The position numbers and the translations under genes were made by a program. The notes beneath the pieces are model-generated. The model was not told the DNA's origin. It worked only from the letters and a program-made list of their open reading frames with translations, and did no database searches. A stretch of DNA of 64,000 bases, taken from assembly GCA_951406725.2 (NCBI GenBank), contig OX597827.1, forward strand, positions 80,166,001 to 80,230,000, in the 5' to 3' direction. Shown piece by piece: positions 6,860 through 49,866 of this stretch. The first letter of the stretch is position 1. Every line of letters begins with the position of its first letter. Origin of the DNA: Octopus vulgaris. Its lineage: Eukaryota.

Positions 6860-7505
6860 ACCCAAATCTAATATGGCCACCATTAGAATATTACATTTTG
6901 AGGCTACAATACAAGCAAACATGAAATCATTATTTCACATAATTTGAATAAATAATATGGAATAACAAACTTACCTTCATTGTGTGTAAAATCCTTTGTT
7001 GTATAAACTGTGACTTGGTCCCAATGTTCTGTTGTTAATGTTTGTCTGTGTCACTGCTGCTATGGTGTGACACTGGCTTCATGTTGATGGAATAGTGTTG
7101 GTGGTGAGTCAGTGGGAACCAGCAGTTCCCTCTCAAGTCTTCCTCTGTGGATGGGTGGTGTTTAGTGAGTGTGTGTGTATGCATGTAAGTGAGTGAGAGA
7201 GAGAGAGAGAGAAAGAGGGGAAGAGTGATGGGTGATGCTTACTCCAGCCTCACTCAGACTTGGTGTTGTGTTTTCCCTCCACAAAGAAAAGAGAGGGACA
7301 ACAAACTATCAGCTCCACTAACAGTCAGCCATGATAAGTCTATATAACACCAACATGTCTGATGTGGAGAGAGACTGACATAGAAATCCTTAGAACAGAG
7401 AGGTTATATTAACAAAATATGGCTGATGCTGTTAATGTGTGTGCAATTTAAAATATAAACAGAATATTGATGATAATAGTTAGTGTGTCTGACCTAATTC
7501 TAAAC
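6860..7505 (-). promoter_or_regulatory. Conserved promoter/first-exon block of G1 (exon ends 6975, ATG-AAG|gtaagt)
   Basis: One of six near-identical blocks, each upstream of a large exon. Strong donor; TATA-like ttatatag, TGACTCA and GCCATATT motifs. Confidence 0.75.
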
Positions 7506-7584
7506 TAACTCTCTCAATCAGGATTTGAAACTTTAAAGATGTACTGATATGTATAGTAAATAAATTATATTTCCTGAAATACTG

Positions 7585-7797
7585 GTCTCAAATTTTCGTA
7601 CAAGGCTAGCAATTTGGGGTGAGAGAGTAACTCAACTGCATGGACCCGAGTACTCCACTAGTACTTATTTTATCAACCCTGAAAGGATGAAAGGTAAAGT
7701 CGACCTGGATGAAATCTGAACTCAGTATGCAAAGATGGACAAAATGTTGCTAAACATTTCACCTGGTGTGCTAATAATTCTGCCAGCTCACTGTCTT
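7585..7797 (-). mobile_element. Octopus-type tRNA-derived SINE
   Basis: Minus strand gagctggcagaattattagcac...ctgagttcagatt...gtcgactttacctttcatcctttc...gataaaataagtac (A/B-box-like head). Related copies at 31.7, 48.3 and 62.9 kb. Confidence 0.75.
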
Positions 7798-8286
7798 ATT
7801 TATTTCCTAAAATATTACCATGTAATATAATCCTTATTCAAGATTTATATGGAATATACATGTAAACTGTCATCATCATCATCACTTAACATCTACTTTC
7901 CATGGTGGCATGGGCTGATATTTCCTCACATCCTAAAATTTAATTAATAACTCATTAATAACACATTTTCAAAAGCATTTTTACTTCTAAATTTTATTTT
8001 TACCAAGAGAAAAATTTATTTTAAAATTTCCAAAAATGTTTATCTTACCTAAGTTTATGTAATTACAGAGAGTTATATTTTGATTGAAACTTTTCATGCC
8101 TATAACTGATGGTTATTTTTTTCATCTGTAAAAACCTTCCAAAGATTTATTTATAACATGTAAAGTTTGAAATGCATAGAAAGGAATTCAGTCATATGAA
8201 AGCAATATCATGATGTAACTAATATATTTCTGTTGTTTTAAATGTTGTGTGAATGTTGAAGGTGATATTATTTCTGTTGTGTTAAC

Positions 8287-8408
8287 TTAACTGGCAACAA
8301 CATCTGGTGTTGAAGGTAACTGTCTCTCTGGAGGTTTCACATATCTGTCTTGGTAATGGTCTCTCTCACTGGTGCTTGATACATCGGGTGGGGCACCACC
8401 ATAGATTC
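8287..8408 (-). CDS. Pcdh: Protocadherin G2 terminal coding exon
   Basis: Acceptor tgtgtttcag; phase 1 reading (G)IYGGAPPDVSSTSERDHYQDRYVKPPERQLPSTPDVVAS*. Conserved in six copies. Confidence 0.88.
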
Positions 8409-9633: not shown

Positions 9634-9787
9634 CTGACATTGCTGGTATTTCTTCATACTGTCTACTTGACCGCTCACTCCAGCACTGTCCACTACTCTT
9701 ACGACTGGTCAATGTGTCAGTGGGATAGTGAGAAGATGGTCTGTTGTCTCCATAAGATGTCACCTCAATGGGTTGACTGTATTTCTG
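9634..9787 (-). CDS. Pcdh: Protocadherin G2 cytoplasmic exon (154 nt)
   Basis: ttttccag|CAG...TCAG|gtacaa; phase 0 to 1, QKYSQPIEVTSYGDNRPSSHYPTDTLTSRKSSGQCWSERSSRQYEEIPAMS(G). Joins in frame to both flanking exons. Confidence 0.9.
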
Positions 9788-10417
9788 CTGGAAAATACAA
9801 TAGCAACAAAATATATTGTAATGGTATCATTTATAAATGTGAACCTGTTACATAGCTAATTCTTAAATATTGATGGGTACATGTATGTAATAATATACTA
9901 TCAACAAGCTATTCTTCCTAACTGCCCATATGAGCACCTAACTAGAACAAGTTAACTAAAATTAGACACATCTCAAATCATTATTTTATAGCTCCCTCTG
10001 AAAAAGCAAATAGTGTCCATGGAATTTTTAGATCTTCCTTTATTAGTTATACTACAAAAATTCATATTGTGCATGTGTCTGTATAATTGCCATACAAGCC
10101 TGGAGGCATCTGAACTGCTATATCAAGAGTTTTCATAAAATTAGCAAAGATTCTATTGACAAATGGTAAGAAAGCACAGTGGTTAATTAGGTCCCTGATG
10201 CTCTACAAGGTATGAATGAACTCTTCATACTCCTAATAGGGATTCTCTTGGATTTGAACAAGAAACAGAAGGCATTTGTCATCTCTGCACCATATTAGTA
10301 AATTCTTCATAGATAAAAAGCATTTGGACAGTAAACGGTATTCTTAAATTTCCAAAGAGAAAAGTAACTTTCATATAAGCATGGTGCCATCTAATAGTCA
10401 ATCAAAGCAAGGCTTAC

Positions 10418-12775
10418 CTTTGTAGACTTCTGAAGTGATCTGCTCATTGTCGATGTCTTCCAGTCTTCAGGATAGTAATGGCTCCTCGAATGACCATATC
10501 TGTCTGACATCTCTCCTCGATTACCTGACATCACAGGTACACTGTTGTTACCTTGATAGATCAACTGTCTCATCTCATTGCGACATTGGTATGCCTGTTT
10601 CTCTTCTGCTGTTCTTTCAGATGAGCTATTTCTCACATTGTTACATCTCACAATACACAGGGTTATAGAAACCACAATAGCTATAGATACTATCACAGCT
10701 GCTACTACAATGATAATCAACAATGTCGCATCTATTGTGTTATCACTTGGTAGGTGCACAGCTGTGAACATTGGTGACGTCTTGTTACTAACAGTCAGTG
10801 TCAAAGACACACTAGTTGTTGCTGACAGAACTGGAGTACCACTGTCTTTCACAACAAACTCAAGCTCATATGATCCGGCATCATTTTGGTAAACTGTGCG
10901 AGAGTAAGATAACACACCAGTGAACGAATCCAGTTTAAATAACTGTCTCTCGTTACCTGAAACGATTTCGTACCTGAGAAAAGCATTCATGTGACTGTCT
11001 ATATCAGATGCTTTCAGAACTGTGATGTCGTTCTTACTTTGCGGATGATAGTGGACATTAAGAGTGAAAGGGTCAACACTAGGAAATGTAAAATATGGAG
11101 CATTATCATTTCTATCCAATACTTCCACTTCAACATTCACTGTGTTATTCAGAGATGGGCTTCCATTGTCTTTCACAAAAACCTCAAACTCATAGAAATC
11201 TCTGTGTTCTCTGTCTAAAGACTGGTTTGTTGAAATAAAGCCAGAGTTGATAATCTGGAATGGCAGACGATATTGCTGTTTATTTCTCAGAGAATAAGAC
11301 AATTCACCTCCCTTACCAATATCTGGGTCTGTAGCATTGATAAAGCCAATAGGGAAATTAGCTTTGTCATTCTCATAGGTAAGGAACTTGAATGTGTCTT
11401 TCGTAAAGTGTGGTTCTACATCATTCACATCCAACACTTGGATTGACAGATCTTTATCAGTTTTCAGAGCAGGTAATCCTTTATCTTCACACGACACAGT
11501 AAAGTGATAATGTTCCTGTGTCTCTCTGTCTACTGCTTTCTTTAGAACTATTTTATATTCCTTCGATCCCATTGACTGTAGTTTGAATGTGTCATCTTTG
11601 ATATGACAGTTCACCTGTCCATTGTGTCCAACATCGTTGTCAGTGACCATCACATAAGCAATGAAACTACCAACTTTGATGTCTTCCAGAATGGTAGCTG
11701 TGTTGTGATTCTGTGTAGAAATAAAGTTCACATCAATATTTGGGGGATTGTTCTGCTGGTTGATGACATTTACCATAACAGTTGCTATGGAACTAAGCGG
11801 AGGACTGCCATCATCTCTGGCTTCGATGTATAATTTAAAAGACTCATCCTTATCCATTTTTGAAGATGTAGCTAAATATAATTTCCCAGTCCTTTCATGT
11901 AAATTAAAGTTTCTCTTCATTTTCTCAGCAGTTTTCCTAGCAAAATAATATGATATTTTACCATTCCTGCCAATATCTAAATCAGTGGCAGATATTGTGA
12001 CTACTGGAATATTCTTTTTATGTTTATGTTCGATAGAAACATTGTAGATACTTTGGGAAAATTGTGGTGGATTATCATTTTCATCTTCCACAGATATTTT
12101 AACATTTAAAACAGACTGCTTTGGTGGAGTTCCTCCATCTTTAGCAATGACTTCAATATCATAATCGTCCTTCTTTTCTCTGTCTAATTTCTCTTCTAAA
12201 ATAATTCCTAATGTTGATATTTCATCAGTCTGTTTTGCAACTGATAATGAAAAGTGTCCATTATCTTTTTTCAATTCATAAGTAATTAAGCTGTTTTCTG
12301 GACTCATATCTTTGTCAATAGCATTAGGTATGGGTTTCTTCATACCTTTACCATCACCTTCCCCAAAAATTAGTGTGATTTCTTTCTGAGGAAACTCAGG
12401 TTGGTGGTCATTGATGTCTTCTATTATGACTTTAATCTTTAAGATCTTCATAAATGTCTTGGATTTGTGAACAGCAACTTTAACGATTTCAAAACATTCT
12501 TTCTCATAACTACACACAGACTCAGCATCCAATGTCTCAACAGTGTACAGTTTACCTGTTCTCGTCACATTGAACAATTGTTCTCCCTTTTGTTGCAGTT
12601 GACTAAATGTAATTAAATCCTTATTCTTTAAGAAGGAGCTGTCTGATTTCTGTAAGTCAGTAGCAATGTCCCCTACATAGGTATGAGGAATATTCTCTTC
12701 TTTAACATGGTATGTGATATCTTCACTTAAATAACAGTGGAAGAAAGTCAGTAAAACACAGAGAAACAGCAACAT
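10418..12775 (-). CDS. Pcdh: Protocadherin G2 large exon (SP, EC1-EC6, TM, juxtamembrane)
   Basis: 794-aa ORF with cadherin motifs (DINDHQP, LDRE, DENDNPP, DVNDVEP, DRNDNAP), EC1 C-X5-C and TM LLIIIVVAAVIVSIAIVVSITLCIV. Donor AAG|gtaagc at 10418; acceptor before 12817. Confidence 0.97.
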
Positions 12776-13424
12776 TTCTGATCTTGTCCAGGAAAACGGT
12801 GGTTTGTAAAATTAAACCTGAAACAAAAAATATGTATCTCATATCAATAAGAAATGTATGGATTTGCAAACCAAGTTTCTTTTCTTTATTTCATTCATAA
12901 AAATATTTTCAATGAAGAACAGCAATGCTACTCTTCTTAATATCATGTACAAGTGGACAAGAATTATATGACCAATTCTTAGCAAACTTAATTATGTATA
13001 TTAAGATTCAATGATTCATAGAATTTCTGAAGACTTAAAGAGTAAAAGTGGCACTTATATCCAGATAAGTACTCTCAAACAAATATTAATCTGCCTAATT
13101 TTGAAGTAAATTAACTAAAGATGAGAAACGTGAATTGTGGGCAAGATCATAATTAATATTTTGACTCTCATTTTACGATGGAATCTAACTTCGCATCAAT
13201 ATTTTTACAGGTCAAAATACAAATATTTTATGGAACTTTGAGTTATTTCCCTTAAATATGACAAACAATTTTAAGTCGAGCAATTATCAATGAAAATATG
13301 CTTAGTTATGTACTTCACGTACGCACAGGTGTGTGTGTGTGTGTGTTTATGTGTGTGTGTGTGTGCTTGTGTGGGTGCTTGTGTATATATACATTTGTGA
13401 TAATGCTATATATATATATATATA

Positions 13425-13862: not shown

Positions 13863-14779
13863 TATAAATATATACAAAGCATTATCAAAATGTATTAACC
13901 AGTTTCAGAAAGTGCAATAATTATATATTCATGAATTTTAAAAAATACACGTGAAATCGGACAATGAAGTTTCTAAGATTATTAAATAGTAATGATATAC
14001 CACCTGGTGGTTAGTTATTGATCAGTTTAAGATACTAAGCCAAATCGCTTTAACTCAACTCCAAGAAATAATTCCTGTCAATAGCACTAAATTCTAAAGA
14101 AATTATAAACAAAAGAATTCTATAACATAATACTGTCCATTACTTGACTCATCTATTAAAGAAAAAAGTCTTCATACAAATTAGACCAGAAGTAAAGAAA
14201 ACGTTCGTTTAGTAAGGTGAGTAAGACTTAGCTGATTACTTTAAACTTGATAGGTATGAGAGAATGGCATATACCTGTTTAAACGTCAAACTAATAATTT
14301 TAAATAAAGCCACCTAATGTAAATCTGACAATAATTAAATAATCAACAGATTTACAGTTAATTGTGTCCTATAACTGAAAATGAAATAAAATTATGTAGA
14401 AAAAATCTAATATAAATACTTAATGAATGTATCTGTAATTAATTATTCTGAAATATGCATCAAACATTTGGAGACAACCTTTTTAGCGATCTGCAGGTGA
14501 ATGTTTGTTATCTGTAATAGACTAAATTATTTTTGTGTAAATCTATGTCAGCACTTCTTGAGCAAAATTATGATCAAAGCATTCCAACCATGACCATCCC
14601 ATAATTTTTCATATAATGGTACATTACCATCATAAAAAAAACAATCAACAGATAAAGATTCACACTGGAACAGATAACAAGGAATAATTACCAAATCAAT
14701 ACTCTTCATGTAGTTTTAATACCAGGTATTCCTAATGAATTTACTAAATTAACAAATTTTGATTAAAACAAGGTATAAG

Positions 14780-15185
14780 CTTGGTTGTATGATTAAGAAG
14801 TTTGCTTCCCAATCACATGGGTTTGGGTTCAGTCCCACTGCACGGCATCTTAGACAAGTGTCTTCTACTATAGCTCCAGTCTGACCAAATGCTTGCAAAT
14901 GGATTTGATGGACAGAAACTGAATGAAAGAAACCCATTGTGTGTGTGTATGTGTATGTGTCTTTCCCTCTCTTTGTAAAAAAGTGACACAGTTATACAAG
15001 CAGAGAGGTTCTTTCCAATCATCTATTAAAACATGTCTGGCCAACAGTAAATATTACCTTATTTGGAAATAGGTGAGGTTTGGCAACAGGAAGGGCAGTA
15101 GTCCATAGAAAATCTGACTCAATAAACATTTTCTGACCCATACAAACATGGAAAAGTGAATGTTAATAAAAACATGATGACAATG
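14780..15185 (+). mobile_element. Octopus-type tRNA-derived SINE with RTE-like tail
   Basis: aagaagtttgcttcccaatcacatgg...GGTTCAGTCCC (B box)...caagtgtcttctactatagc...(TG)n...ggcaacaggaagggc...atgatga. Paralogous copy at 23.0-23.4 kb. Confidence 0.75.
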
Positions 15186-15545
15186 ATCAAAGAACATACT
15201 AGAAAATGTTGGAAACACTTCTGGGTTATTACTGAAAACATATTAAGTATGTAAACTAAAAACAATCATTTACTGATCAACATTGGCCATATTTGTACAT
15301 TGAATTTGTTAAACACATTTCATAGACAACCAATATGAAATATTACATCATGAATACTGTTCAGTGACTGAACAAAGGAAGTGAATACAAAACTATACTC
15401 ATCAATAACTCACACAAAGCAATGAACATTTGCATCCACCCAAGACTAAACACACACACACACACACACACACACAATATACTATCACAAAAATGATAAT
15501 GGTTTCTAACTAAAATTTCTTATATGAACATGAATTGCAGTGAAA

Positions 15546-15590
<45 letters not shown>

Positions 15591-15828
15591 AAAGGCAGTC
15601 CCTTCTATATATGTAGGATGTTCTAAAGCCATACAATGTCTGAGTGATAGATGAAGTAAAAATGAAATAAAAAAGGCAGACAAGATAAACAGTGTGAAAA
15701 CACAAAAGATAAGAGAATATGCTTTGAGCAAAATGCTAGTGACTAGGATTGAACACACTCACTTCACTCTCTGTTTTTCACAATCTTTTCCATAACCAAC
15801 TCATAAAGACATTAAATGAGAACAAACA

Positions 15829-16450
15829 GATCTAATATGGCCACCATTAGAACGTTACATTTTGATAATGTATTATGGTTATATATGAAATCATTATTAC
15901 ACACAAGTGGATAAATAATATGGAATAACAAACTTACCTTCATTGTGTGTAAAATCCTTTGTTGTATAAAGTGTGACTTGGTCCCAATGTTCTGTTGTTA
16001 ATGGTTGTCTGTGTCACTGCTGCTATGGTGTGACAATGGCTTCATGTTGATGGAATAGTGTTGGTGGTGAGTCAGTGGGAACCAGCAGTTCCCTCTCAAG
16101 TCTTCCTTTGTGGATGTGTGGTGTTTAGTGAGTGTGTGCATGGGTGTGAGTGAGAGACAGAGAGAGGAGGAGAGATGGGTGATGCTCACTCCAGCCTCAC
16201 TCAGACTTGATGTGTTTTCCCTCACAATGAAAAGAGAGGGACAACAAACTATCAGCTCCACTAACAGTCAGCCATGATAAGTCTATATAACACCAACATG
16301 TCTGATGTAGAGAGAGACTGACATAGAAATCCTTAGAACAGAGAGGTTATATTAACTAAATATGGCTGATGTTGTTAATGTGTGTGTAATTTAAAATGTA
16401 AATATAACATTGATAATAACAGTTAGTGTCTGTCTGACCTAGTTCTAAAT
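15829..16450 (-). promoter_or_regulatory. Conserved promoter/first-exon block of G2 (exon ends 15938)
   Basis: Near-identical to the other five blocks; ATG-AAG|gtaagt donor. Confidence 0.75.
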
Positions 16451-16840
16451 TAATTCTCCTATTTAGAATGTAAAATGGAGAAATCAAAACTGTGAAATAA
16501 AGTATTATTCCTAAAATGTAATATAATCATTTTACTACTCAAATATATGTTATACAATTGTCTTATATTTGTTGCTTAAAATATTTTCAATTTTAAATTG
16601 TATTTCAAAAGTAAAAATGTCAATCTATAATTTCTTAGTCATTCCTTTATCTTTAGTTTACCTAACAGAGCTATAAATTTATTCCTCTTACCTAAGCTGT
16701 AAAATTATTGTCCGAAACACATACAAAGATATTCAGTCGTATGTAGGCAGTATTATTAACTAATTTGTTTTTGTTGTTTTAAATGTTGTGTGAATGTTGA
16801 AGGTGATATTATTTCTGTTGTGTTCCTTTCTCAGTCTCAC

Positions 16841-16962
16841 TTAACTGACAACAACATCTGGTGTTGAAGGTAACTGTCTCTCTGGAGGTTTCACATATCT
16901 GTCTTGGTAATGGTCTCTCTCACTGGTGCTTGATACATCGGGTGGGGCACCACCATAGATTC
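16841..16962 (-). CDS. Pcdh: Protocadherin G3 terminal coding exon
   Basis: tgtttcag acceptor; (G)IYGGAPP...RQLPSTPDVVVS*. Confidence 0.88.
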
Positions 16963-17301
16963 CTGAAACATATATATCAATGGGTATTCAACGAATGACT
17001 TTAGTCAACAGTTCCTTCTTTTATATTAAGTGCTCTACAAAATAACTATTATGAAGGGATTAATACCTCACTATACGATTAGACCTATACAATCTTGAGC
17101 ATATTACGTGACAATTAACTAATAAATAAAAAGAGATTTACTCTTTTAATTTATAAATTTAATTCATAGTGATAAAACTATTAGAAATAACATTTTGGAA
17201 GTCCTCAAAATCCTAGTGTTTGTTTAGACTTCAATCCCAGAGAGATCAATGGGATAAATGATAAACACACCAAATAACATAGGTAAATGTGAATGTTTTA
17301 C

Positions 17302-17455
17302 CTGCCATTGCTGGTATTTCTTCATACTGTCTGCTTGACCGCTCACTCCAGCACTGTCCACTGCTCTTACGACTGGCCAGTGTGTCAGTGGGATAGTGAG
17401 AAGATGGTCTGTTGTCTCCATAAGATGTCACCTCAATCGGTTGACTGTATTTCTG
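17302..17455 (-). CDS. Pcdh: Protocadherin G3 cytoplasmic exon (154 nt)
   Basis: aacag|CAG...GCAG|gtaaaa; matches ORF-track peptide TSYGDNRPSS...YEEIPAMAG. Confidence 0.9.
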
Positions 17456-19054
17456 CTGTTAGAGAAAACAAAAAACAACAATGACTTGATTTGTCCAAGA
17501 AAAACATTTGGAAATTCTGGATGCTTACTGTTTTGGGGTGTAAAGGTTAGGGTCTGTAGTTAGTGTGAGATATGGGAGAGGAGACCACAGTGGTAAGAGA
17601 AGAAGAAATGGGAAGGAACATCTCAGACGCAGAGGTTAGTGCATTGCTTAGTGAGTCTTCACTGATCACTGAAAGAAAAATTGTTTGAAAATTTTTCAAG
17701 TCAACACTAACATGCAGAAGGTAGCTCAGAGATTTTAGATAATTATAACTACACATCTATTGAAGAGAAGAAATCAGTACCATGATGATAAATTATTGCC
17801 AAGAAAGAAGGATACCTCATGAAATATTAACTATTTAACATTAATTAAAAATCAAGGATGTTTGTGTGTGAAGTAGATGTGATCACATTTCAGCTTTATA
17901 GAAGGTCAAGGCAGGTGAGATCATTAGATTCGAGGAATTTGATAAAAACTTCACACAAACACAACTCAAGAAGCTTCTATTCAACCTAAAACACTCACAA
18001 AATATTCTTTGTTTCCTTACAAGTAGTAGTAGTCTTAGATCCATTATTTTTAGAAAAAGGACAGGATAGCCACAATCTATAAATTCACGTTTCCAGTTAC
18101 GTTGCATCTCCATATATTGATGAACCATATCACTTTGACTCTGCTTTTCTACCTTCACTTACAGAGGCCTCGAATCTCAGAGGTCCCGCCCTGGGCGACT
18201 GAGCTTACTCATCTCTTCTCCTCTAGTCAATCATATTGCCAGCCTTTCTGTACCCTACAACAACCACTTAATCTTTCTGCCTCAGAACATCTTCCCCACT
18301 GAAATTCACTCTATTCCCATACTTCTCCAGCTGTTTTATACCAGTAATTACTCAAGAGAATATGCCACATTAACCTCAATTGTAACGGTCAAGGATACAG
18401 GCCCCACATCTGGACCAAACCCTTATGGAACAGAAAAAAAAACTTGTATATTTATATGCTAGTGTAATGATTTATTTAAATATTGAATGTTGTTACAGTC
18501 AAATAATAATAAAATATCGCAGACATTTGGTGTAGATGAGCAACATAACATACCAGAAATAACAATTTCTACTCTCAACTCATAATTCTAAAAGACTATG
18601 AAATAAACTAAAACTAAATTCTGAATTAGAAGCAGCTCGAATACTATAAACATAATTCAGGTCACAAACTTAATAAATGTGTTTTGTTTGAAGAGTTACA
18701 AGTCACAGGATTTCATCTATTGAAAGTTTCTTTAAGGCATACGTTGAAGAACACTGAATACTTCAAAACCAAACAAAACAGATGAAATACACAATTGATA
18801 ATGTTATACAAACATTGTTGGATAATAATTATGGAAATAATATCTAAATCTATATTTATGAAAATATAAAGATTACACTAAAAGTATAAATGAAGTTGTT
18901 CTCCAGAGGAGATTTAAGAGAATACCGAAATAGAAGATTAATACATATTTTCATGCTTTTTGGCAAACTTCAATTCACTGTCGATGTCTTCTATTCAAAT
19001 AATTCTTAATTAAACATTAATTACTAACAAACACTCAATCCAAATAAAGCTTAC

Positions 19055-21415
19055 CTTTGTAGACTTCTGAAGTGTCCGACTCATTGTTGACGTCTTCCAA
19101 TCTTCAGGATAGTAATGGCTTCTCGAATGACCATATCTGTCTGACATCTCTCCTCGATTACCTGACATCACAGGTACACTGTTGTTACCTTGATAGATCA
19201 ACTGTCTCATCTCATTGCGACATTGGTATGCCTGTTTCTCTTCTGCTGTTCTTTCAGATGAGCTATTTCTCACATTATTACATCTCACAATACACAGGGT
19301 TATAGAAACCACAATAGCTATAGATACTATCACAGCTGCTACTACAATGATAATCAACAATGTTGCATCTATTGTGTTATCACTTGGTAGGTGCACAGCT
19401 GTGAACATTGGTGACGTCTTGTTACTAACAGTCAGTGTCAAAGACACACTAGTTGTTGCTGACAGAACTGGAGTACCACTGTCTTTCACAACAAACTCAA
19501 GCTCATATGATCCGGCATCATTTTGGTAAACTGTGCGAGAGTAAGATAACACACCAGTGAACGAGTCCAGTTTAAATAACTGTCTCTCGTTACCTGAAAC
19601 GATTTCATACCTGAGAAAAGCATTCATGTGACTGTCTATATCAGATGCTTTCAGAACTGTGATGTCGTTCTTACTTTGCGGATGATAGTGGACATTAAGA
19701 GTGAAAGGGTCAACACTAGGAAATGTAAAATATGGAGCATTATCATTTCTATCCAATACTTCCACTTCAACATTCACTGTGTTATTCAGAGATGGGCTTC
19801 CATTGTCTTTCACAAAAACCTCAAACTCATAGAAATCTCTGTGTTCTCTGTCTAAAGACTGGTTTGTTGAAATAAAGCCAGAGTTGATAATCTGGAATGG
19901 CAGACGATATTGCTGTTTATTTCTCAGAGAATAAGACAATTCACCTCCCTTACCAATATCTGGGTCTGTAGCATTGATAAAGCCAATAGGGAAATTAGCT
20001 TTGTCATTCTCATAGGTAAGGAACTTGAATGTGTCTTTCGTAAAGTGTGGTTCTACATCATTCACATCCAACACTTGGATTGACAGATCTTTATCAGTTT
20101 TCAGAGCAGGTAATCCTTTATCTTCACACGACACAGTAAAGTGATAATGTTCCTGTGTCTCTCTGTCTACTGCTTTCTTTAGAACTATTTTATATTCCTT
20201 CGATCCCATTGATTGTAGTTTGAATGTGTCATCTTTGATATGACAGTTCACCTGTCCATTGTGTCCAACATCATTGTCAGTGACCATCACATAAGCAATG
20301 AAACTACCAACTTTGATGTCTTCCAGAATGGTGGCTGTGTTGTGATTCTGTGTAGAAATAAAGTTCACATCAATATTTGGGGGATTGTTGTGTTGGTTGA
20401 TGACATTTACCATAACGGTTGCTATGGAACTCAGAGGAGGAATTCCATTATCTTTAGCTTCAATATATAATTTTAAAGAATTTTTGGTGTCAACCTCTAA
20501 AGATTTTATTAAGAATATTTTCCCAGAGTTTTCATCAATATTAAAATACTGTTTCATTTGCATATCAGTCTTCGGACTGAAATAGAAAGATATTTTACCA
20601 TTCCTGCCAATATCTAAATCACTGGCAGATAATGTGACTACTGGAATATTCTTTTTATGTTTATGTTCTATAGAGACATTGTAGATACTTTGAGAAAACT
20701 GTGGTCTGTTGTCATTTTCGTCTTTTACAGATATTTTAACATTTAACACAGATTGTTTTGGTGGAGTTCCCCCATCTTTAGCAATGACTTCAACATTGTA
20801 ACTGTCTTTCGTTTCTCTGTCTAATTTCTTTTCTAAAATAATTTCTATTGATGATATTCCATCTGCACGTTTGACAACATGTAAAGAAAAGTGGCTTCTA
20901 TCATCTTTTCTCAGTTCATATGTAATTAAACTATTTTTATTACCCATATCTTTATCAACAGCATTGGGTATTGATAGTTTTGATCCTTTACTATCTCTCT
21001 CTGAAAACTGAATGTTGACTTCTTCAGTTGGAAACTCAGGTTGGTGGTCATTGATGTCTTCTATTATGACTTTAATCTTTAAGATCTTCATAAATGTCTT
21101 CGATTTGTGAACAGCAACTTTAACGATTTCAAAACATTCTTTCTCATAACTACACACAGACTCAGCATCCAATGTCTCAACAGTGTACAGTTTACCTGTT
21201 CTCGTCACATTGAACAATTGTTCTCCCTTTTGTTGGAGTTGACTAAATGTAATCAAATCCTTATTCTTTAAGAAGGAGCTGTCTGATTTCTGTAAGTCAG
21301 TAGCAATGTCCCCTACATAGGTATGAGGAATATTCTCTTCTTTAACATGGTATGTGATATCTTCACTTAAATAACAGTGGAAGAAAGTCAGTAAAACACA
21401 GAGAAACAGCAACAT
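19055..21415 (-). CDS. Pcdh: Protocadherin G3 large exon
   Basis: 801-aa ORF with six cadherin repeats and TM. Donor AAG|gtaagc at 19055; acceptor before 21471. Confidence 0.97.
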
Positions 21416-23765: not shown

Positions 23766-23825
<60 letters not shown>

Positions 23826-24057: not shown

Positions 24058-24685
24058 CAGATCTAATATGGCCACCATTAGAACGTTACATTTTGATAAT
24101 ATAATATGGTTATATATGAAATCATTATTTCACATAATTTGAATAAATAATATGGAATAACAAACTTACCTTCATTGTGTGTAAAATCCTTTGTTGTATA
24201 AACTGTGACTTGGTCCCAATGTTCTGTTGTTAATGGTTGTCTGTGTCACTGCTGCTATGGTGTGACAATGGCTTCATGTTGATGGAATAGTGTTGGTGGT
24301 GAGTCAGTGGGAACCAGCAGTTCCCTCTCAGTCTTCCTTTGTGGATGTGTAGTGTTTAGTGAGTGTGTGCATGGGTGTGAGTGAGAGACAGAGAGAGGAG
24401 AGATGGGTGATGCTTACTCCAGCCTCACTCAGACTTGATGTGTTTTCCCTCACAATGAAAAGTGAGGGACAACAAACTATCAGCTCCACTAACAGTCAGC
24501 CATGATAAGTCTATATAACACCAACATGTCTGATGTGGAGAGAGACTGACATAGAAATACTTAGAACAGAGAGGTTATATTAACTAAATATGGCTGATGT
24601 TGTTAATGTGTGTGTAATTTAAAATGTAAATACAATATTGACAATAAGAGTTAGTGTGTGTGTGTGTGTCTGACCTAATTCTAAA
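24058..24685 (-). promoter_or_regulatory. Conserved promoter/first-exon block of G3 (exon ends 24170)
   Basis: Near-identical block; ATG-AAG|gtaagt. Confidence 0.75.
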
Positions 24686-32334: not shown

Positions 32335-32960
32335 ACAGATCTAATATGGCCACCATCAGAATATTACATTTTCATATTACAGGAAGGCTACATATGAAAT
32401 CATTATTTCACGTAATTTGAATAAATAATATTGAACAATAGACTTACCTTCATTGTGTGTAAAATCCTTTGTTGTATAAACTGTGACTTGGTCCCAATGT
32501 TCTGTTGTTAATGGTTGTCTGTGTCACTGCTGCTATGGTGTGACAATGGCTTCATGTTGATGGAATAGTGTTGGTGGTGAGTCAGTGGGAACCAGCAGTT
32601 CCCTCTCAGTCTTCCTCTGTGGATGGGTGGTGTTTAGTGAGTGTGTGCATGGGTGTGAGTGAGAGACAGAGAGAGGAAGAGATGGGTGATGCTCACTCCA
32701 GCCTCACTCAGACTTGATGTGTTTTCCCTCACAATGAAAAGAGAGGGACAACAAACTATCAGCTCCACTAACAGTCAGCCATGATAAGTCTATATAACAC
32801 CAACATATCTGATGTGGAGAGAGACTGACATAGAAATCCTTAGAACAGAGAGGTTATATTAACAAAATATGGCTGATGTTGTTAATGTGTGTGTAATTTA
32901 AAATGTAAATACAATATTGACAATAACAGTTAGTGTGTGTGTGTCTGACCTAATTCTAAA
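32335..32960 (-). promoter_or_regulatory. Conserved promoter/first-exon block of G4 (exon ends 32448)
   Basis: Near-identical block; ATG-AAG|gtaagt. Confidence 0.75.
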
Positions 32961-34005: not shown

Positions 34006-35664
34006 CTGTTAGAGAAAACAAAAAACAACAATGACTTGATTTGTCCAAGAAAAACATTTGGGAATTCTGGATGCTTACTGTTGTGGGGTGTAAAGGTTAG
34101 GGTCTGTGGTTAGTGTGAGATATGGGAGAGGAGACCATGGTAAAAGTTTTGAGACTGGAATGAGTTTTCAGCAAGCTATTCATAGAAAGAGTCCATGGCA
34201 GTGGTAAGAGAAGAAGAAATGAGAAAGAACATCTCAGACGCAGAGGTTAGTGCATTGCTTAGTGAGTATTCACTGATCACTGAAAGAAAAATTGTTTGAA
34301 AATTTTTCAAGTCACACTAAGATACAAAAGGTAGCTAAGAGATTTTAGATAATTATAACTACACATCTATTGAAGAGAAGAAATAAGTGCCATAATGATA
34401 AATTATTGCCAAGAAATAAGGATACCTCATGAAATATTAACTATTTAACATTAATTAAAAATCATGGATGTTTGTGTGTGAAGTAGCAGTGATCACATTT
34501 CAGCTTTATAGAAGGTCAAGGCAGGTGAGATCATTAGATTCGAGGATTTTGATAAAAACTTCACACAAACAAAATTCAAGAAGCTTCTATTCAACCTAAA
34601 ACACTCACAAAATATTCTTTGTTTCCTTACAAGTAGTAGTAGTCTTAGATCCATTATTTTTAGAAAAAGGACAGGATAGCCACAATCTATAAATTCATGT
34701 TTCCAGTTATGTTGCATCTCCATATATTGATGGACCATATCACTTTGACTCTGCTTTTCTACCTTCACTTACAGAAGCCTCGACTCCCAGAGGTCCCACC
34801 CTGGGCGACACATCTTACTCATCTCTTCTCCTCTAGTCAATTGTATTGCCAGCCTTTCTGCACCCTACAACGACCACTTAATCTTTCTGCCACAGCACAT
34901 CTTCCCCACTGAAATTCACTCTATTCCCATACTTCTCCAGCTGTTTTATACTAGTAATTACTCAAGAGAATAAGCTACATTAACCTCAATTGTGAGGGTC
35001 AAGGACACAGGCCCCACATCGGGACCAAACCCTTATGCAACAGAAAAAAAAACTTGTATATTAATATGCTAGTGTAATGATTTATTTAAATATTGAATGT
35101 TGTTACAGTCAAATAATAATAAAATATTGCAGACATTTGGTGTAGATGAGCAACATAACATACCAGAAATAACAATTTCTACTCTTAACTCATAATTCTA
35201 AAAGAGTACAAAATAAACTAAAACTAAATTTTGAATTAGAAGCAGCTCTAATACTATAAACATAATTCAGGTCACAAACTTAATAAATGTGTTTTGTTAG
35301 AAGAGTTACAAGTCACAGGATTTCATCCATGGAAAGTTTCTTTAAGACATACGTTGAAGAACACTGAATACTTCAAAACCAAACAAAACAGATGAAATAC
35401 ACAATTGATAATGTTATACAAACATTGTTTGATAATAATTATGGAAATAATATCTAAAACTATATTTATGAAAATATAAAGATTACACTAAAAGTATAAA
35501 TGAAGTTGTTCTCCAGAGGAGATTTAAGAGAATACCGAAATAGAAGATTAATAGATATTTTCATGCTTTCTGGCAAACTTCAATTCACTGTCGGTGTCTT
35601 TTATTCAAATAGTTCTTAATTAAACATTAACTACTAACAAACACTCAATCCAAATATATCTTAC

Positions 35665-38067
35665 CTTTGTAGACTTTTGAAGACTTCTGCTCATTGTCGA
35701 TGTCTTCCAGTCTTCAGGATAGTAATGGCTTCTCGAATGACCATATCTGTCTGACATCTCTCCTCGATTACCTGACATCACAGGTACACTGTTGTTACCT
35801 TGATAGATCAACTGTCTCATCTCATTGCGACATTGGTATGCCTGTTTCTCTTCTGCTGTTCTTTCAGATGAGCTATTTCTCACATTGTTACATCTCACAA
35901 TACACAGGGTTATAGAAACCACAATAGCTATAGATACTATCACAGCTGCTACTACAATGATAATCAACAATGTCGCATCTATTGTGTTATCACTTGGTAG
36001 GTGCACAGCTGTGAACATTGGTGACGTCTTGTTACTAACAGTCAGTGTCAAAGACACACTAGTTGTTGCCGACAGAACTGGAGTACCACTGTCTTTCACA
36101 ACAAACTCAAGCTCATATGATCCGGCATCATTTTGGTAAACTGTGCGAGAGTAAGATAACACACCAGTGAACGAATCCAGTTTAAATAACTGTCTCTCGT
36201 TACCTGAAACGATTTCATACCTGAGAAAAGCATTCATGTGACTGTCTATATCAGATGCTTTCAGAACTGTGATGTCGTTCTTACTTTGCGGATGATAGTG
36301 GACATTAAGAGTGAAAGGGTCAACACTAGGAAATGTAAAATATGGAGCATTATCATTTCTATCCAATACTTCCACTTCAACATTCACTGTGTTATTCAGA
36401 GATGGGCTTCCATTGTCTTTCACAAAAACCTCAAACTCATAGAAATCTCTGTGTTCTCTGTCTAAAGACTGGTTTGTTGAAATAAAGCCAGAGTTGATAA
36501 TCTGGAATGGCAGACGATATTGCTGTTTATTTCTCAGAGAATAAGACAATTCACCTCCCTTACCAATATCTGGGTCTGTAGCATTGATAAAGCCAATAGG
36601 GAAATTAGCTTTGTCATTCTCATAGGTAAGGAACTTGAATGTGTCTTTCGTAAAGTGTGGTTCTACATCATTCACATCCAACACTTGGATTGACAGATCT
36701 TTATCAGTTTTCAGAGCAGGTAATCCTTTATCTTCACACGACACAGTAAAGTGATAATGTTCCTGTGTCTCTCTGTCTACTGCTTTCTTTAGAACTATTT
36801 TATATTCCTTCGATCCCATTGACTGTAGTTTGAATGTGTCGTCTTTGATATGACAGTTCACCTGTCCATTGTGTCCAACATCATTGTCAGTGACCATCAC
36901 ATAAGCAATGAAACTACCAACTTTGATGTCTTCCAGAATGGTAGCTGTGTTGTGATTCTGTGTAGAAATAAAGTTCACATCAATATTTGGAGGATTGTTG
37001 TGTTCATTGATAACATTTATCTGAATTATTGCTACGGAGCTCAGTGGAGGACTGCCATCATCTCTGGCTTCAATGTATAATTTTAAAGACTCTTCTTTAT
37101 CAATTTCTGAAGATGTAGCTAAATATAATTTCCCAGTATTTTCATCTAAATTAAAATGTCTCTTCATTTTCTCAGCAGTTTTCCTGGCAAAGTAATATGA
37201 TATTTTACCATTCCTGCCAATATCTAAATCACTGGCAGATAATGTGACTACTGGAATATTCTTTTTATGTTTATGTTCAATGGAGACATTGTAAATACTT
37301 TGAGAAAACAGAGGTGTATTATCATTTTGATCTTGTACAGATATTTTAACATTTAAAACAGATTGTTTTGGTGGAGATCCTCCATCTTTGGCAATGACCT
37401 GAATACTATAACTATCTTTCTTTTCTCTATCTAATTTCTCTTCTAAAATAATTCCCAATGTTAATATTCCATTAGTATGTTTGGCAACTACTAAAGAGAA
37501 ATACTGATTATCCTTTTTTAATTCATATGTAATTAAACTGTTCTCATATCCCACATCTTTATCAATAGCATTTTCTATTGATCTCTTCGTGCCTTTGCCA
37601 TCTGTTTCAGAAAATTGAATATTGACTTCTTCAGTTGGAAACTCAGGTTGGTGGTCATTGATGTCTTCTATTATGACTTTAATCTTTAAGATCTTCATAA
37701 ATGTCTTGGATTTGTGAACAGCAACTTTAACGATTTCAAAACATTCTTTCTCATAACTACACACAGACTCAGCATCCAATGTCTCAACAGTGTACAGTTT
37801 ACCTGTTCTCGTCACATTGAACAATTGTTCCCCTTTTTGTTGTAGTTGACTAAATGTAATTAAATCCTTATTCTTTAGGAAGGAACTGTCTGATTTCTGT
37901 AGGTCAGTAGCAATGTCCCCTACATAGGTATAGGGACTATTCTCTTCTTCAACATGGTATGTGATATCTTCACTTAGGGAAAAGTGAAAGAAAGTCAGTA
38001 ATACATACAGACATAACATTTCTGTTCTTGACAGTATCCAGGGATAAGGAGAACACAATTTGTTCAT
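35665..38067 (-). CDS. Pcdh: Protocadherin G5 large exon
   Basis: 818-aa ORF. Acceptor ttttgtttcag before 38067 (exon begins ATG AAC AAA), signal-peptide Met at 38019, donor at 35665. Confidence 0.97.
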
Positions 38068-39914: not shown

Positions 39915-40540
39915 CAGATCTAATATGGCCACCATCAGAATATTACTTTTGGCTTTACAATATAGCTGTATATGACATGATTCATTTCACATCATTGGAC
40001 AAATAATAGGGAATAATAGACTTACCCTCATTGTGTGTAAAATCCTTTGTTGTATAAACTGTGACTTGGTCCCAATGTTCTGTTGTTAATGGTTGTCTGT
40101 GTCACTGCTGCTATGGTGTGACAATGGCTTCATGTTGATGGAATAGTGTTGGTGGTGAGTCAGTGGGAACCAGCAGTTCCCTCTCAAGTCTTCCTCTGTG
40201 GATGGGTGGTGTTTAGTGAGTGTGTGCATGGGTGTGAGTGAGAGACAGAGAGAGGAAGAGAGATGGGTGATGCTCACTCCAGCCTCACTCAGACTTGATG
40301 TGTTTTCCCTCACAATGAAAAGAGAGGGACAACAAACTATCAGCTCCACTAACAGTCAGCCATGATAAGTCTATATAACACCAACATGTCTGATGTGGAG
40401 AGAGACTGACATAGAAATCCTTAGAACAGAGAGGTTATATTAACAAAATATGGCTGATGTTGTTAATGTGTGTGTAATTTAAAATGTAAATACAATATTG
40501 ACAATAACAGTTAGTGTGTGTGTGTCTGACCTAATTCTAA
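39915..40540 (-). promoter_or_regulatory. Conserved promoter/first-exon block of G5 (exon ends 40026, ATG-AGG|gtaagt)
   Basis: Near-identical block; second codon is AGG rather than AAG. Confidence 0.75.
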
Positions 40541-40978
40541 ACCAACTCTCTCAATTAGGATATACACTGAAAATTTGAAAATGATATGTAATCCATGTAT
40601 AATATACTTTCCGAGTGTAAAGATTTATAATTTGATTTAGTACGTTATTATAGATATACAGAACAATTCAATTTATATTTTCAATCTGAATTGTCCTTCA
40701 ACAAGGGAGTCATCTAATTATAATTGATCAAAATATTTTTCTTAACTTTGGTTTGCCTTACTATACAGTGTTATACATTGATTTTTCATATCTAAAGTTG
40801 TGAAATTTTTCAACCCAAAATATATATACATCATATATTGTGTGACACACATACGAAAAATTTTCAGTCATATGTGGGGAAATATTATTTACTAACTAAT
40901 ATATTTCTGTTGTTTTAAATGTTGTGTGAATGTTGAAGGTGAGATATTATTTCTGTTGTGTTCCTTTCTCAGTCTCAC

Positions 40979-41100
40979 TTAACTGACAACAACATCTGGT
41001 GTTGAAGGTAACTGTCTCTCTGGAGGTTTCACATATCTGTCTTGGTAATGGTCTCTCTCACTGGTGCTTGATACATCGGGTGGGGCACCACCATAGATTC
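40979..41100 (-). CDS. Pcdh: Protocadherin G6 terminal coding exon
   Basis: Intact copy, ends DVVVS*. Confidence 0.88.
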
Positions 41101-41239
41101 CTGAAACACACATATCAAATAAACTTACTACATAGTTCATACAGACAATAGGTATTCTATGACATTAGTAACAAATCTCTTTTTGTTACAATAATTTGAT
41201 TAAGCTATAAAATAACAATTAACAAAGAAAAGTTTACTA

Positions 41240-42147: not shown

Positions 42148-42301
42148 CTGACATTGCTGGTATTTCTTCATACTGTCTACTTGACCGCTCACTCCAGCAC
42201 TGTCCACTACTCTTACGACTGGTCAATGTGTCAGTGGGATAGTTAGAAGATGGTCTGCTGTCTCCATAAGATGTCACCTCAATGGGTTGACTGTATTTCT
42301 G
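42148..42301 (-). CDS. Pcdh: Protocadherin G6 cytoplasmic exon (154 nt)
   Basis: ctaacag|CAG...TCAG|gtagga; open frame with YEEI. Confidence 0.9.
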
Positions 42302-47379: not shown

Positions 47380-48020
47380 GTTCAAAACTGGATGCTTCTG
47401 GGAACTGTATGGACAGTTTCTCATAGCTGAAATAGTCAAAAAATTCAAGGAGAAATTCCAAACATAGAAGCAGAGCTTAGTATCTAGAGGTTTGAAAATA
47501 AAACTAGCACAGACAAAAATCCTAGTTAACAGGGAAAAATATAGAACTCAACTGTCATCTGAAAAGTGGCCAGGCTACAATTCTTTACTATACACCCGAT
47601 GTAAATTATGGATGCACAAGGTCAATAATATTAAAGAGAACTTAACAGAGAAGGACTGTATATGGCAAATGCACAAGAGTAGTTAGTAGTAATGATATCC
47701 ATGAAAAGAAATCTTTCAAATGATTGGAAGAGTCCCGACAAGTAGCCAATAGCTTCTGTTACCTGGACAAATTAATCAGCAATGAAGGTAAAAGTTCCAA
47801 AAGTATAGAAGCTAGGGTACAACAGAGTGTAAGAAAAGTTCAGAGATATTAACTTTTCAGGCAGTAAAGGGTCTCTCTGTCCGAGAAAAAGGTAAATTAT
47901 ATGTTGCTTGTGTACAAAGTATGATATTGCCAAGTAATAAAACATAAGCATTAAATGCAGAGGAAAGATCAGAAAGAAAAGAGGTGGATGTGTAATGCAT
48001 GAGTGAGACACCACAAATGA
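47380..48020 (+). mobile_element. Highly degenerate RTE-like reverse transcriptase remnant
   Basis: Fragments resembling GC.WEL.Y, GLKIKLAQTKIL and KGKLYVACVQS, interrupted by stops and frameshifts. Confidence 0.45.
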
Positions 48021-49252
48021 ATTGACAGAAAAACTGTACAGAAGGGGACCATATACAAATAAATGTATAAGTCTGAAACAAATCCATGATAAATTCGTAA
48101 TTAGTAATTCTTAAATAAGAATCAAATATTTGACAACATTACCAATGGCACTTTTACTTGGTTGCCAGTAGCAATATTTGTCATCTAAGATCTATTAAAA
48201 GTGACAAACACACTGAGTTATTCAAGTGTTACATAGAATGCTTTGCAGGATTTGTCACAGATCTTTATGAGTTCAAACCACACTAAAGTTACCTTTACCT
48301 TTCATCCTTCTATAATCAATAACATATCAGTCAAGCACTGAGACCACTTCTCCTTGTAGAATTGGCTACATTGCACCGAATAAAGGATCATGATGGACCA
48401 TTCACAGAATTTGATTCTCCAGAAATGGAAAAGATTTGAGCAAATGCCTACCAACATCTTCTCATAGAAAGCCTAAAGAACTACTACAACCATCCATCCA
48501 AGGATAGCCTGATATGCAGTACAGCCTAGAACAGAAACAAAGAGCATCAACAAGATCGATCAAATTTAGATCTATATCAGGTCTTATCCATCAGACATAT
48601 GTTGAAAGGTATTTTAATTATGAAAGCCTCACATTTTTCATACATAGACACCACTTGGTGCTACAAAACTAATAAGCAAATGATTAAGACTTCATAATAG
48701 ACAGAAGGCCACTATATCACTATTCTTCATGTAGCCTTGAGGCCAGATTCCTCATTCTCTGTTAAAATAATATATCTAAATAATTTCAATGTAAATTATA
48801 GAAATATCATAAATGTGTCTATTATGATAGTTAAATAGGTAAGTTTAATACAATCTTTAACTCTTCAAAATTCGTACATATTTGGCAAATTTAGTCTCAT
48901 TTATAAAATTCATAGAAATCAAATTATTAAGACATTTCAACATGAAACTAGTCATCAATATATCTATACACAGAAGTATATAATAAACTCACAGATTAAT
49001 ACTACTTTGCTTCTGTAAGACCAAACAATGGCTGACTGAGTGGACAGCTAAAACTAAAATGATGCACAGTTTTAAAATATAATAAACAACAACATTAATA
49101 TTGTGAATATATCAAAGATAACAGCAAATAACACAATACATTATATAAAAGTAGAACTGCACATACATTTCCTTCTCCAACTGTTTCTCAAAATTAACTA
49201 AATGCATGACAGCCATATTAGAAAAGATTTTCACCATTGGATTAAAATTAAC

Positions 49253-49866
49253 ACAGATCTAATATGGCTACCATCAGAATATTACATTTTTGATGTTACA
49301 ATAGAGCTATATATGAAATCATTATTTCACAGAATAGCACAAATAATATTGAACAATAAACTTACCTTCATTGTGTGTAAAATCCTTTGTTGTATAAACT
49401 GTGACTTGGTCCCAATGTTCTGTTGTTAATGGTTGTCTGTGTCACTGCTGCTATGGTGTGACAATGGCTTCATGTTGATGGAATAGTGTTGGTGGTGAGT
49501 CAGTGGGAACCAGCAGTTCCCTCTCAGTCTTCCTCTGTGGATGTATGGTATTTAGTGAGTGTGTGTGCGTGAGAGTGAGAGATGGGTGATGCTCACTCCA
49601 GCCTCACTCAGATTAGATGTTATGTTTCCCCTCACACACAAAGACAGAGTAGTGAGAGAACACACACAATCAGCTCCACTAACAGTCAGCCATGATAAGT
49701 CTATATAACACCAACATGTCTGATGTGGAGAGAGACTGACATAGAAATCCTTAGAACAGAGAGGTTATATTAACAAAATATGGCTGATGTTGTTAATGTG
49801 TGTGTAATTTAAAATGTAAATATATTATTGACAATAACTGTTAGTGTGTGTCTGACCTAATTCTAA
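49253..49866 (-). promoter_or_regulatory. Conserved promoter/first-exon block of G6 (exon ends 49366)
   Basis: Near-identical block with a locally divergent middle (49560-49670); ATG-AAG|gtaagt. Confidence 0.75.

Follow-up and report, generated by a model that had tools for sequence, protein, structure and literature searches.

Near-identical blocks before six tandem octopus protocadherin genes: likely promoters with non-coding first exons, probably homogenised by gene conversion

The window, i.e. the whole 64-kb stretch of Octopus vulgaris DNA analysed here, is a head-to-tail array of seven octopus protocadherin genes (G1-G7), all on the minus strand. From 5′ to 3′, each gene consists of a block described below, a donor, an intron of 2.0-4.9 kb, a large exon encoding EC1-6 and TM, and two private 3′ exons. 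The exons are as follows.

1..2033, minus strand: G1 large exon; signal-peptide ATG at 1989; extends beyond the window edge
10418..12817, minus strand: G2 large exon (EC1-6, TM); ATG at 12775
9634-9787 and 8287-8408, minus strand: G2 exon 3 and coding part of exon 4; 877 aa
19055..21471, minus strand: G3 large exon; ATG at 21415
17302-17455 and 16841-16962, minus strand: G3 exons 3 and 4; 878 aa
27355..29750, minus strand: G4 large exon; ATG at 29705; frameshift with a 1-nt gap near 28666
25542-25695 and 25081-25202, minus strand: G4 exons 3 and 4
35665..38067, minus strand: G5 large exon; ATG at 38019
33852-34005 and 33391-33512, minus strand: G5 exons 3 and 4; 876 aa
42535..44937, minus strand: G6 large exon; ATG at 44889
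42148-42301 and 40979-41100, minus strand: G6 exons 3 and 4; 876 aa
55037..57438, minus strand: G7 large exon; ATG at 57397
52737-52890 and 50308-50429, minus strand: G7 exons 3 and 4; 878 aa

All five intact genes tested encode 876-878 aa without an internal stop, and the 1-nt frameshift in G4 may be an assembly error. Two of the seven genes (G5 and G7) were scanned against Pfam, each giving Cadherin_2 plus five Cadherin stretches. Exons 3 and 4 are each present in the window as six separate copies, none of which is common to several genes.

The first-pass annotation had described six near-identical ~520-bp blocks before G1-G6, each beginning ~400-800 bp past the stop codon of the upstream gene. 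This description holds: the blocks span 502-530 nt from start to donor on the minus strand and begin 391-782 nt past the upstream stop, which lies ~760-810 nt before TGACTCA in five of the six copies.

6975..7504, minus strand: block B1, before G1; donor after 6975; TATAA at 7408; TGACTCA at 7111; Inr-like TCAGTC with its A at 7376; GCCATATT at 7423
15938..16449, minus strand: block B2, before G2; Inr-like A at 16319
24170..24685, minus strand: block B3, before G3; Inr-like A at 24547
32448..32960, minus strand: block B4, before G4; Inr-like A at 32826
40026..40541, minus strand: block B5, before G5; Inr-like A at 40407; ends in ATG AGG
49366..49867, minus strand: block B6, before G6; Inr-like A at 49737
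6860..6974, minus strand: start of G1 intron 1; GCCATATT 97-98 nt past the donor
15841, 24072, 32350, 39929 and 49268, minus strand: intronic GCCATATT of the other five copies

Gap-free pairwise differences among B1-B6 range from 2/514 to 38/493 sites (0.4-7.7%, mean 4.4%, 15/15 pairs). The start of intron 1 is ~83% alike across the six copies, and BLAST of block plus intron start gave 80-89% identity. The flanks had been called unrelated or weakly related, which agrees with a median likeness of 60-62% over 300 nt on each side (non-homologous baseline 55%, maximum 59%). The exception is B2 and B3, a recent pair whose flanks are 96-98% alike.

The motifs listed for the blocks, namely TTATATAG, TGACTCA, two GCCATATT, a CT/CA tract and a G/GTAAGT donor, were found in 6/6 cases. 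Their chance levels were computed per single block, because the six copies are not independent. The donor, which had been called strong, exceeds chance by this measure (P 0.011, 2000 shuffles). So do the two proposed YY1-like sites flanking the exon: GCCATNTT, which resembles the YY1 consensus, occurs twice in 6/3000 shuffles. It is found on both sides of the exon, the intronic one being fixed in position in 7/7 copies. The AP-1-type TGACTCA and the TATA-like element are indeed present, the former in 6/6 blocks, but both are at chance level, with P 0.24 for TGACTCA in a single block and P 0.19 for sense TATATA (2000 shuffles each), and canonical TATAWAWR is absent. These two motifs were therefore rejected as stand-alone evidence, and there is probably a better candidate for the core promoter than the TATA-like element. 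A pairing of TATAA at -32 with TCAGTC was found in 6/6 blocks and in 0.6% of 3000 shuffles, this geometry being a post hoc observation with 8 further occurrences in the window. The intronic motif exists in six copies, with the exact 18-mer in 4/6, and had been quoted on the plus strand while the other motifs were given on the minus strand. The statement that no convincing CTCF site is visible was confirmed by consensus scan (as opposed to weight matrix or ChIP), in which CGCT was absent from 6/6 blocks and the best match to the CTCF core had 3 mismatches. CpG is absent from five blocks and occurs once in B6 (o/e 0.04 for B4).

A diverged seventh copy, which the first-pass annotation had missed, was found before G7, and a further 5′ exon is predicted for this gene.

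61588..61830, minus strand: B7, diverged seventh copy (3′ half), before G7; nhmmer E 0.0023
57576..57776, minus strand: predicted second 5′ non-coding exon of G7; donor CAG/GTAAGT; 137-nt intron

B7 scores 10.1 bits, whereas the top score among 40 shuffled windows was 6.0, and it matches B4 at 95/137 aligned bases (~30% diverged). It retains TGACTCA (61814), ATGAAGC, the donor after 61692 and GCCATATT at +97 (61595), which the other copies have at +97/98. The retention of motifs in B7 suggests that purifying selection also contributes to the likeness of the blocks. No homologues of exon 3 or exon 4 were found upstream of B7 within the window. The predicted 5′ exon of G7 lies inside a CpG-rich stretch (57500-59000, CpG o/e 0.84-1.78, compared with 0.26 for the window). 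All 7 block copies inside the window precede a protocadherin gene; a candidate eighth on the plus strand near 63588 was rejected, as it gave no profile match.

Each block is likely to serve the gene that follows as its promoter and non-coding first exon, as the first-pass annotation had proposed. At the level of sequence, this is supported by the donor, by two gene models, by the position of B7 and by the TATAA/TCAGTC geometry. The seven minus-strand [AG]GGTAAGT sites in the window are the six block ends and the 5′ exon of G7. Moreover, two public gene models open with MK, the last two codons of the block, exactly at the genomic acceptor. In P0009, M-K is followed by G4 from the predicted acceptor; 335/338 residues match, and two of the three mismatches are the M and K themselves. 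This model also bridges the G4 frameshift and takes its exon 3 from G3 and its exon 4 from G2. P0006, from another contig, has M-K before the acceptor in a G2/G3-type intron 1 and relies on a weak donor. Both models may be partly ab initio, and a targeted region search for short, transcript-derived N-termini found two proteins, neither with M-K. The terminal ATG-AAG is open and in frame in G4-G6 and stopped or out of frame in G1-G3; therefore, it is not a required start. Transcription would begin inside the 98%-conserved core, the best candidate being TATAA at -32 with TCAGTC, and the resulting leader of 370-400 nt, with upstream ATGs, would be spliced from the block donor to the large exon.

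Two other roles for the block were rejected. As a coding exon it has only short upstream ORFs, a 1-nt indel divides the copies 3 to 3, and tblastn returned 2/120 homologues that were weak, stop-containing or short (E 0.007-0.03). As a structured RNA, the hairpin formed by the first GCCATATT arm and the TTATATAG arm gave z of -1.3 to -1.5 (3/6 copies folded), and the best 24-nt inverted repeat was matched by 17/200 shuffles, which is not significant. No Rfam family reached its gathering score in the window, with 3 sub-threshold matches around B4.

The near-identity of the six blocks is likely to be best explained by gene conversion. The blocks are mosaics (30/55 informative-site pairs incompatible), and B4 and B5 differ at 2/514 sites, yet their flanks are only 57-59% alike, i.e. 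at baseline. Homogenised segments are the block, EC1, EC4-6, TM and the 3′ exons, whereas EC2-EC3, the signal peptide and the introns are not homogenised. At four-fold sites, G1-G6 differ by 6.4% in EC1, 35% in EC2-3 and 1.2% in EC4-6, with dS of 0.09, 0.62, 0.54 and 0.02 for EC1, EC2, EC3 and EC4-6, respectively. One of 15 short windows (residues 256-270) is itself homogenised, and positive selection on EC2-EC3 as a whole was rejected (dN/dS 0.28-0.29). The corresponding four-fold values for G7 are 43%, 60% and 0.7%; its EC1-3 is divergent (55-64% aa), while its EC4-6 is 99% like that of G1-G6. G7 groups with Argonauta P0032 in the EC1 (99/96) and EC2-3 (100/100) trees, yet its EC4-6 is 99% like the window paralogues and 95% like this orthologue. 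Across EC4-6, the genes of the window are 99.4% identical to one another and 9 Argonauta paralogues 98.6%, compared with 95.0% between the two sets. EC4-6 has been homogenised in a lineage-specific manner, an argument that rests on these identities, the EC4-6 tree having no supported branch. RNA-templated conversion is unlikely, since the likeness extends ~110 nt into intron 1 and decays within the large exon at both ends (third-position difference 27.5% in the signal peptide and 16% in the last 35 codons).

We favour, with some confidence, a joint reading in which the block would be a promoter and first exon, conversion would act by segment, and G1-G6 would receive the same proximal regulatory input, being switched on together or independently and not by an exclusive choice of the vertebrate type. 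Conversion may then take over the function that the variable/constant design has in vertebrates, such that an interchangeable promoter, EC1, EC4-6 and tail would surround a private EC2-EC3. The first-pass annotation had instead raised stochastic promoter choice among G1-G6, which the sequence tests neither show nor exclude, and to which they give no support. The equivalence of the blocks would follow from gene conversion, which homogenises the coding exons of the same genes too, and promoter identity requires no special mechanism besides it. From equivalent promoters, co-expression is to be expected just as much as choice and, as each gene has private last exons, the sequence offers no reason why the use of one promoter should exclude that of another.

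A rather improbable alternative is that the blocks are first exons and promoters competing for a limiting shared enhancer, with each neuron stably picking a random subset of G1-G6 independently of CTCF and CpG. Diversity is indeed confined, by four-fold sites and dS, to EC2-EC3, the specificity domains of vertebrate Pcdhs (PMC4978886). GCCATNTT flanks the exon on both sides, fixed within the intron in 7/7 copies, and the different, CpG-rich 5′ region of G7 is reminiscent of a C-type gene. However, no enhancer was identified, the blocks lack a CGCT box and have 0-1 CpG each, every match to the CTCF core has at least 3 mismatches, and shared constant exons are absent. Octopus neurons, moreover, express ~21 protocadherins each, several of them cell-type specific, according to excerpts of PMC9712504, with the limit that the 10x dataset may not separate these paralogues. 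It is similarly doubtful that a neuronal barcode like that of vertebrates has been re-created in the octopus with neither CTCF sites nor CpG switches nor constant exons. In such a system, conversion would keep promoters, EC1, EC4-6 and tails interchangeable around a private EC2-EC3, a factor bound to the paired GCCATATT would randomly bring one block or a few into a loop with a shared enhancer, and G7, given its CpG-rich 5′ region, would be a C-type-like constitutive member.

It is less probable still that the block is mainly distal 3′ UTR or read-through of the upstream gene, its donor serving fusion transcripts that continue into the following gene. Read-through could extend into the block: the block begins only 391-782 nt past the upstream stop, and AATAAA is missing from 2/6 of the intervening gaps, one having ATTAAA alone and one neither signal. 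PCDH read-through fusions were reported during annotation (excerpts of PMC9712504), and P0005 and P0009 are cross-gene models. However, 3′ UTR similarity is down to a median of 61.5% at 101-300 nt past the stop and is regained only where the block starts, no AATAAA lies inside the block, B7 is not preceded by a last exon in the window, and the P0005 fusion bypasses the block. Least probable, by our estimate very unlikely, is a transposon or dispersed repeat spread by tandem duplication, or identity produced by the assembly: the octopus genome is repeat-rich and the G4 frameshift is a possible error, but there is one copy per gene in fixed place and orientation, 6/6 blocks lack a B box and an A8/T8 run, no tRNA and no Rfam family at gathering score was found, and Argonauta paralogues with their own residues are homogenised in EC4-6 too, which assembly collapse does not explain.

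The block, as a likely promoter and first exon, provides a defined element for the question of per-neuron random protocadherin expression in cephalopods, with G7 as an internal control in whose diverged copy GCCATATT and TGACTCA survive. Reads from EC2-EC3, the signal-peptide leader or the 3′ UTR past ~100 nt separate the genes (except G3 vs G4 in the 3′ UTR, 96%), whereas reads from exon 1, EC1, EC4-6 or exon 4 cannot. Excerpts of PMC9795677 date a 'recent' protocadherin burst to 8-14 Ma from whole-gene distances. Such distances can be lowered by conversion: in EC4-6, G7 is 99% like the neighbouring genes even though its orthologue is present in Argonauta.

Cephalopod tandem protocadherin sub-arrays arise by whole-gene duplication and not by splicing to shared exons, and their homogenisation by gene conversion has been suggested (excerpts of Albertin et al. 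2022, PMC9068888). Both processes are already published, and the window is one such array, with head-to-tail multi-exon genes in both. In contrast, the excerpts of that paper make no mention of promoters or a non-coding first exon, while here conversion is mapped by segment and reaches the 5′ block. The authors' reply (PMC9712504, in part) terms the large exon the first exon, and a homogenised first exon of cephalopod protocadherins was not found in the literature searched. The vertebrate Pcdh alpha and gamma clusters, as excerpted from PMC7811963, PMC4978886 and PMC8787164, share with the array one large EC1-6/TM exon, a promoter per isoform (which in octopus would follow from our reading), a conserved element upstream, and a pattern of conversion from which EC2-EC3 is exempt (for the vertebrate pattern, PMC4978886). 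They differ in having a CSE with CGCT box, a CTCF site and a CpG methylation switch, all absent from the octopus blocks with their near-lack of CpG, and in splicing variable exons to shared constant exons, which the octopus genes do not have. Moreover, the vertebrate element is a short motif ~200 bp before the ATG, whereas the octopus element is ~520 nt of near-identity lying 2.0-4.9 kb upstream behind an intron. Vertebrate Pcdh beta genes similarly encode a full-length protein, each from its own promoter (excerpts of PMC7811963). They are single variable exons with a CSE, whereas the octopus genes have a 5′ non-coding exon, two 3′ exons and no CSE. Chelicerate sDscam 5′ cassettes splice to common exons. 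They too form an invertebrate tandem array of neuronal recognition genes with alternative promoters (excerpts of PMC4835542), but belong to the immunoglobulin family, whereas the octopus genes are cadherins, each of them complete.

Seven protocadherin genes (G1-G7) lie head-to-tail in the window, all on the minus strand. G5 and G7, the two genes scanned, each have a Cadherin_2 stretch at the N-terminus along with five Cadherin stretches, and the closest named relatives among the 120 matches listed, of 2268, are Octopus and Argonauta protocadherins. Every gene from G2 to G7 comes with a private exon 3 (154 nt) and exon 4, and five of these genes are intact, giving products of 876-878 aa with no internal stop. 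A 1-nt gap near 28666 (minus strand) puts G4 out of frame where its fourth cadherin repeat (EC4) begins, leaving block and 3′ exons intact; this is either a pseudogene or an assembly error, and the public protein model P0009 bridges the same frameshift. P0009 (aligned to 29750-8287) combines the large exon of G4 with a G3 exon 3 and a G2 exon 4, matching exactly only those copies, through either a mapping artefact or cross-gene splicing. All six genes have a tandem NAGCAG as the acceptor of exon 3 (9787-9790 and equivalents, minus strand), allowing one residue more or less.

Near-identical blocks (B1-B6) precede G1-G6 and a diverged copy (B7) precedes G7. The blocks are real, and the most likely interpretation is that each is a promoter with first exon, homogenised by conversion.

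Blocks and predicted G7 exon
6975, 15938, 24170, 32448, 40026, 49366, minus strand: donor-side ends of the six blocks (length 502-530 nt)
61830-61588, minus strand: B7, the diverged copy before G7
57776-57576, minus strand: predicted G7 5′ exon, with a further donor-like site at 58162

The six blocks begin 391-782 nt after the stop codon of the upstream gene. Pairwise differences at gap-free sites are 0.4-7.7% (mean 4.4%, 15 pairs), while the 300 nt outside either block end have a median similarity of 60-62% against a baseline of 55%, confirming the first-pass annotation of near-identical blocks with unrelated or weakly related flanks. Similarity is 99% over the final 140 nt of the block and 83% over the initial 110 nt of the intron. 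All the motifs originally listed were recovered in 6/6 blocks. Because the copies are not independent, significance was tested in a single block: chance occurrence was P = 0.24 for TGACTCA, P = 0.19 for TATATA and P = 0.011 for the donor (2000 shuffles), and two GCCATNTT per block were reached in 6 of 3000 shuffles. All six blocks also carry a 15-codon upstream ORF with an ATG-AAG start (7082 and equivalents); B7 retains ATGAAGC at the equivalent place (61785), heading a 23-codon ORF. Translational control is possible. Interspersed repeats bordered by (GAT)n occur at about 7590-7900, 31029-31044 and 59690 (minus strand), and the one between the G2 3′ UTR and B1 may explain the longer gap there.

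The block is probably a first exon. All seven minus-strand [AG]GGTAAGT sites in the window fall at the six block ends and the end of the G7 5′ exon (57576), with one on the plus strand. P0009 starts with M-K and then tracks G4 from the acceptor at 29750; P0006, a model from another contig, has its M-K start before the acceptor at 14664/22878. In both, the genomic acceptor sits where the model has M-K. P0006 also uses a possible cassette exon with a weak donor in intron 1 of G2 and G3 (14664-14589 and 22878-22803, minus strand). A TATAA lies 32 nt before TCAGTC in 6/6 blocks, inside a core conserved at 98%; this geometry, reached by 0.6% of 3000 shuffles, was noticed post hoc and has eight other such sites in the window. 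As a core promoter it is a better candidate than the TTATATAG previously proposed as TATA, which lies 29 nt downstream of the initiator-like site. Upstream of B7, neither exon 3 nor exon 4 has a homologue within the window, which ends 2.2 kb above it (blastn; tblastn with divergent paralogues). The proposal of a promoter with first exon is supported by the donors, the M-K models, B7 and TATAA/TCAGTC. Against it, P0009 mixes exons of three genes and both models are of uncertain basis; a targeted search for short N-termini derived from transcripts gave two short proteins, neither with M-K; AATAAA is absent from 2/6 stop-to-block gaps; and PMC9712504 mentions PCDH read-through fusions. The ATG at the end of the block opens an in-frame, uninterrupted reading frame in only 3/6 genes. 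The exon is therefore most simply taken as a leader, which would be non-coding and carry upstream ORFs.

B7 was recovered by a block-profile search (E 0.0023), its score being reached by 0/40 shuffled windows. Of its 137 bases aligned with B4, 95 are identical, and B7 retains TGACTCA, ATGAAGC, the donor and, at +97, GCCATATT (+97/98 in other copies), anchors that partly drive its alignment. Their constant spacing points to selection on them. The G7 5′ region (57500-59000, minus strand) holds the window's three most CpG-rich 500-nt bins (CpG o/e 0.84-1.78), a possible second promoter besides B7. Upstream of G7 is a MITE-like inverted repeat (59524-59677/60199-60356; arms 137-158 nt, 90-93%, about 560 nt apart). 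A GC-richer intronic repeat occurs in two copies, 72% alike (5276-5742 and 51712-52214), and a LINE-like fragment lies in G1 intron 1 (about 4440-4870).

Gene conversion very probably homogenises these copies, as the coding exons have the same patchwork of likeness as the blocks at sites without protein constraint. Four-fold site differences among G1-G6 are 6.4% in EC1, 35% in EC2-3, 1.2% in EC4-6 and 1.1% in the TM-tail; for G7 they are 43%, 60%, 0.7% and 0.5%. Likewise, dS is 0.09 in EC1, 0.62 in EC2, 0.54 in EC3 and 0.02 in EC4-6. In trees of 32 proteins (six window genes, P0009 standing in for G4, and 26 hand-picked from 120 homologues), G7 clusters with Argonauta P0032 in EC1 (99/96) and EC2-3 (100/100), and G1 pairs with P0008 in EC2-3 (98/98), not in EC1. 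No branch of the EC4-6 tree has support and the argument there rests on identities: 99% between G7 and its neighbours, 95% between G7 and P0032. Argonauta paralogues are likewise homogenised within species (98.6%), which argues against assembly collapse. In Argonauta hians this subfamily forms a larger array (P0007-P0035), all on one contig and homogenised in EC4-6 in the same way. The block follows the EC1 pattern, alike across G1-G6 and diverged in G7, and is itself mosaic, 30/55 pairs among 11 informative sites being incompatible. Between B4 and B5, whose flanks are at baseline, 2 of 514 sites differ, and B3 is equally near B4/B5 (9/513) and its flank twin B2 (12/509). Selection on some motifs would supplement conversion. 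Tracts 93-94% alike (13865-17599 with 22086-25836; 17588-21428 with 25889-29718 and 34199-38031; 24037-29728 with 32313-38045) reflect either recent duplication or long conversion; they cross gene boundaries, introns included, so that 3′ introns are common to G3, G4 and G5 and intron 1 to B2/B3.

The blocks would give G1-G6 a shared proximal input, leading to co-activation or independent firing, and on balance we favour this explanation, conversion-homogenised first exons included. Dedicated choice among the G1-G6 promoters appears unlikely; none of the tests showed exclusive choice, and none spoke decisively against it. Mammalian choice involves CSE/CGCT CTCF sites, oriented enhancer sites, methylation and antisense RNA (PMC7811963), with near-identical promoters competing for an enhancer (PMC8787164). 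As anticipated, a motif scan revealed no convincing CTCF site: CGCT is absent from 6/6 blocks and no sequence comes closer to the CTCF core than 3 mismatches. Octopus methylation is reportedly mostly gene-body and alike across compared tissues (PMC9476566). About 21 PCDH are expressed per neuron in O. vulgaris, some of them widely and others in particular cell types, in data that may not separate members of this subfamily (PMC9712504).

Tandem duplication and conversion of cephalopod protocadherins are already in print (PMC9068888, PMC9795677). For cephalopod protocadherins, no description of homogenised promoters or non-coding first exons came up in literature searches or in the available text of PMC9068888, PMC9712504, PMC9795677, PMC13218726 and PMC6339937; Albertin et al. 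2015, Wang and Ragsdale 2017, supplements or public annotations may already include the exon. The array agrees with the published cephalopod picture, in which diversity arises by whole-gene duplication and gene conversion is suggested as homogeniser (PMC9068888). Unlike mammalian clusters, the blocks have no CGCT, no close CTCF-core match and 0-1 CpG each, and the genes share no exons. In common with vertebrate clusters, EC2-EC3 is spared (PMC4978886).
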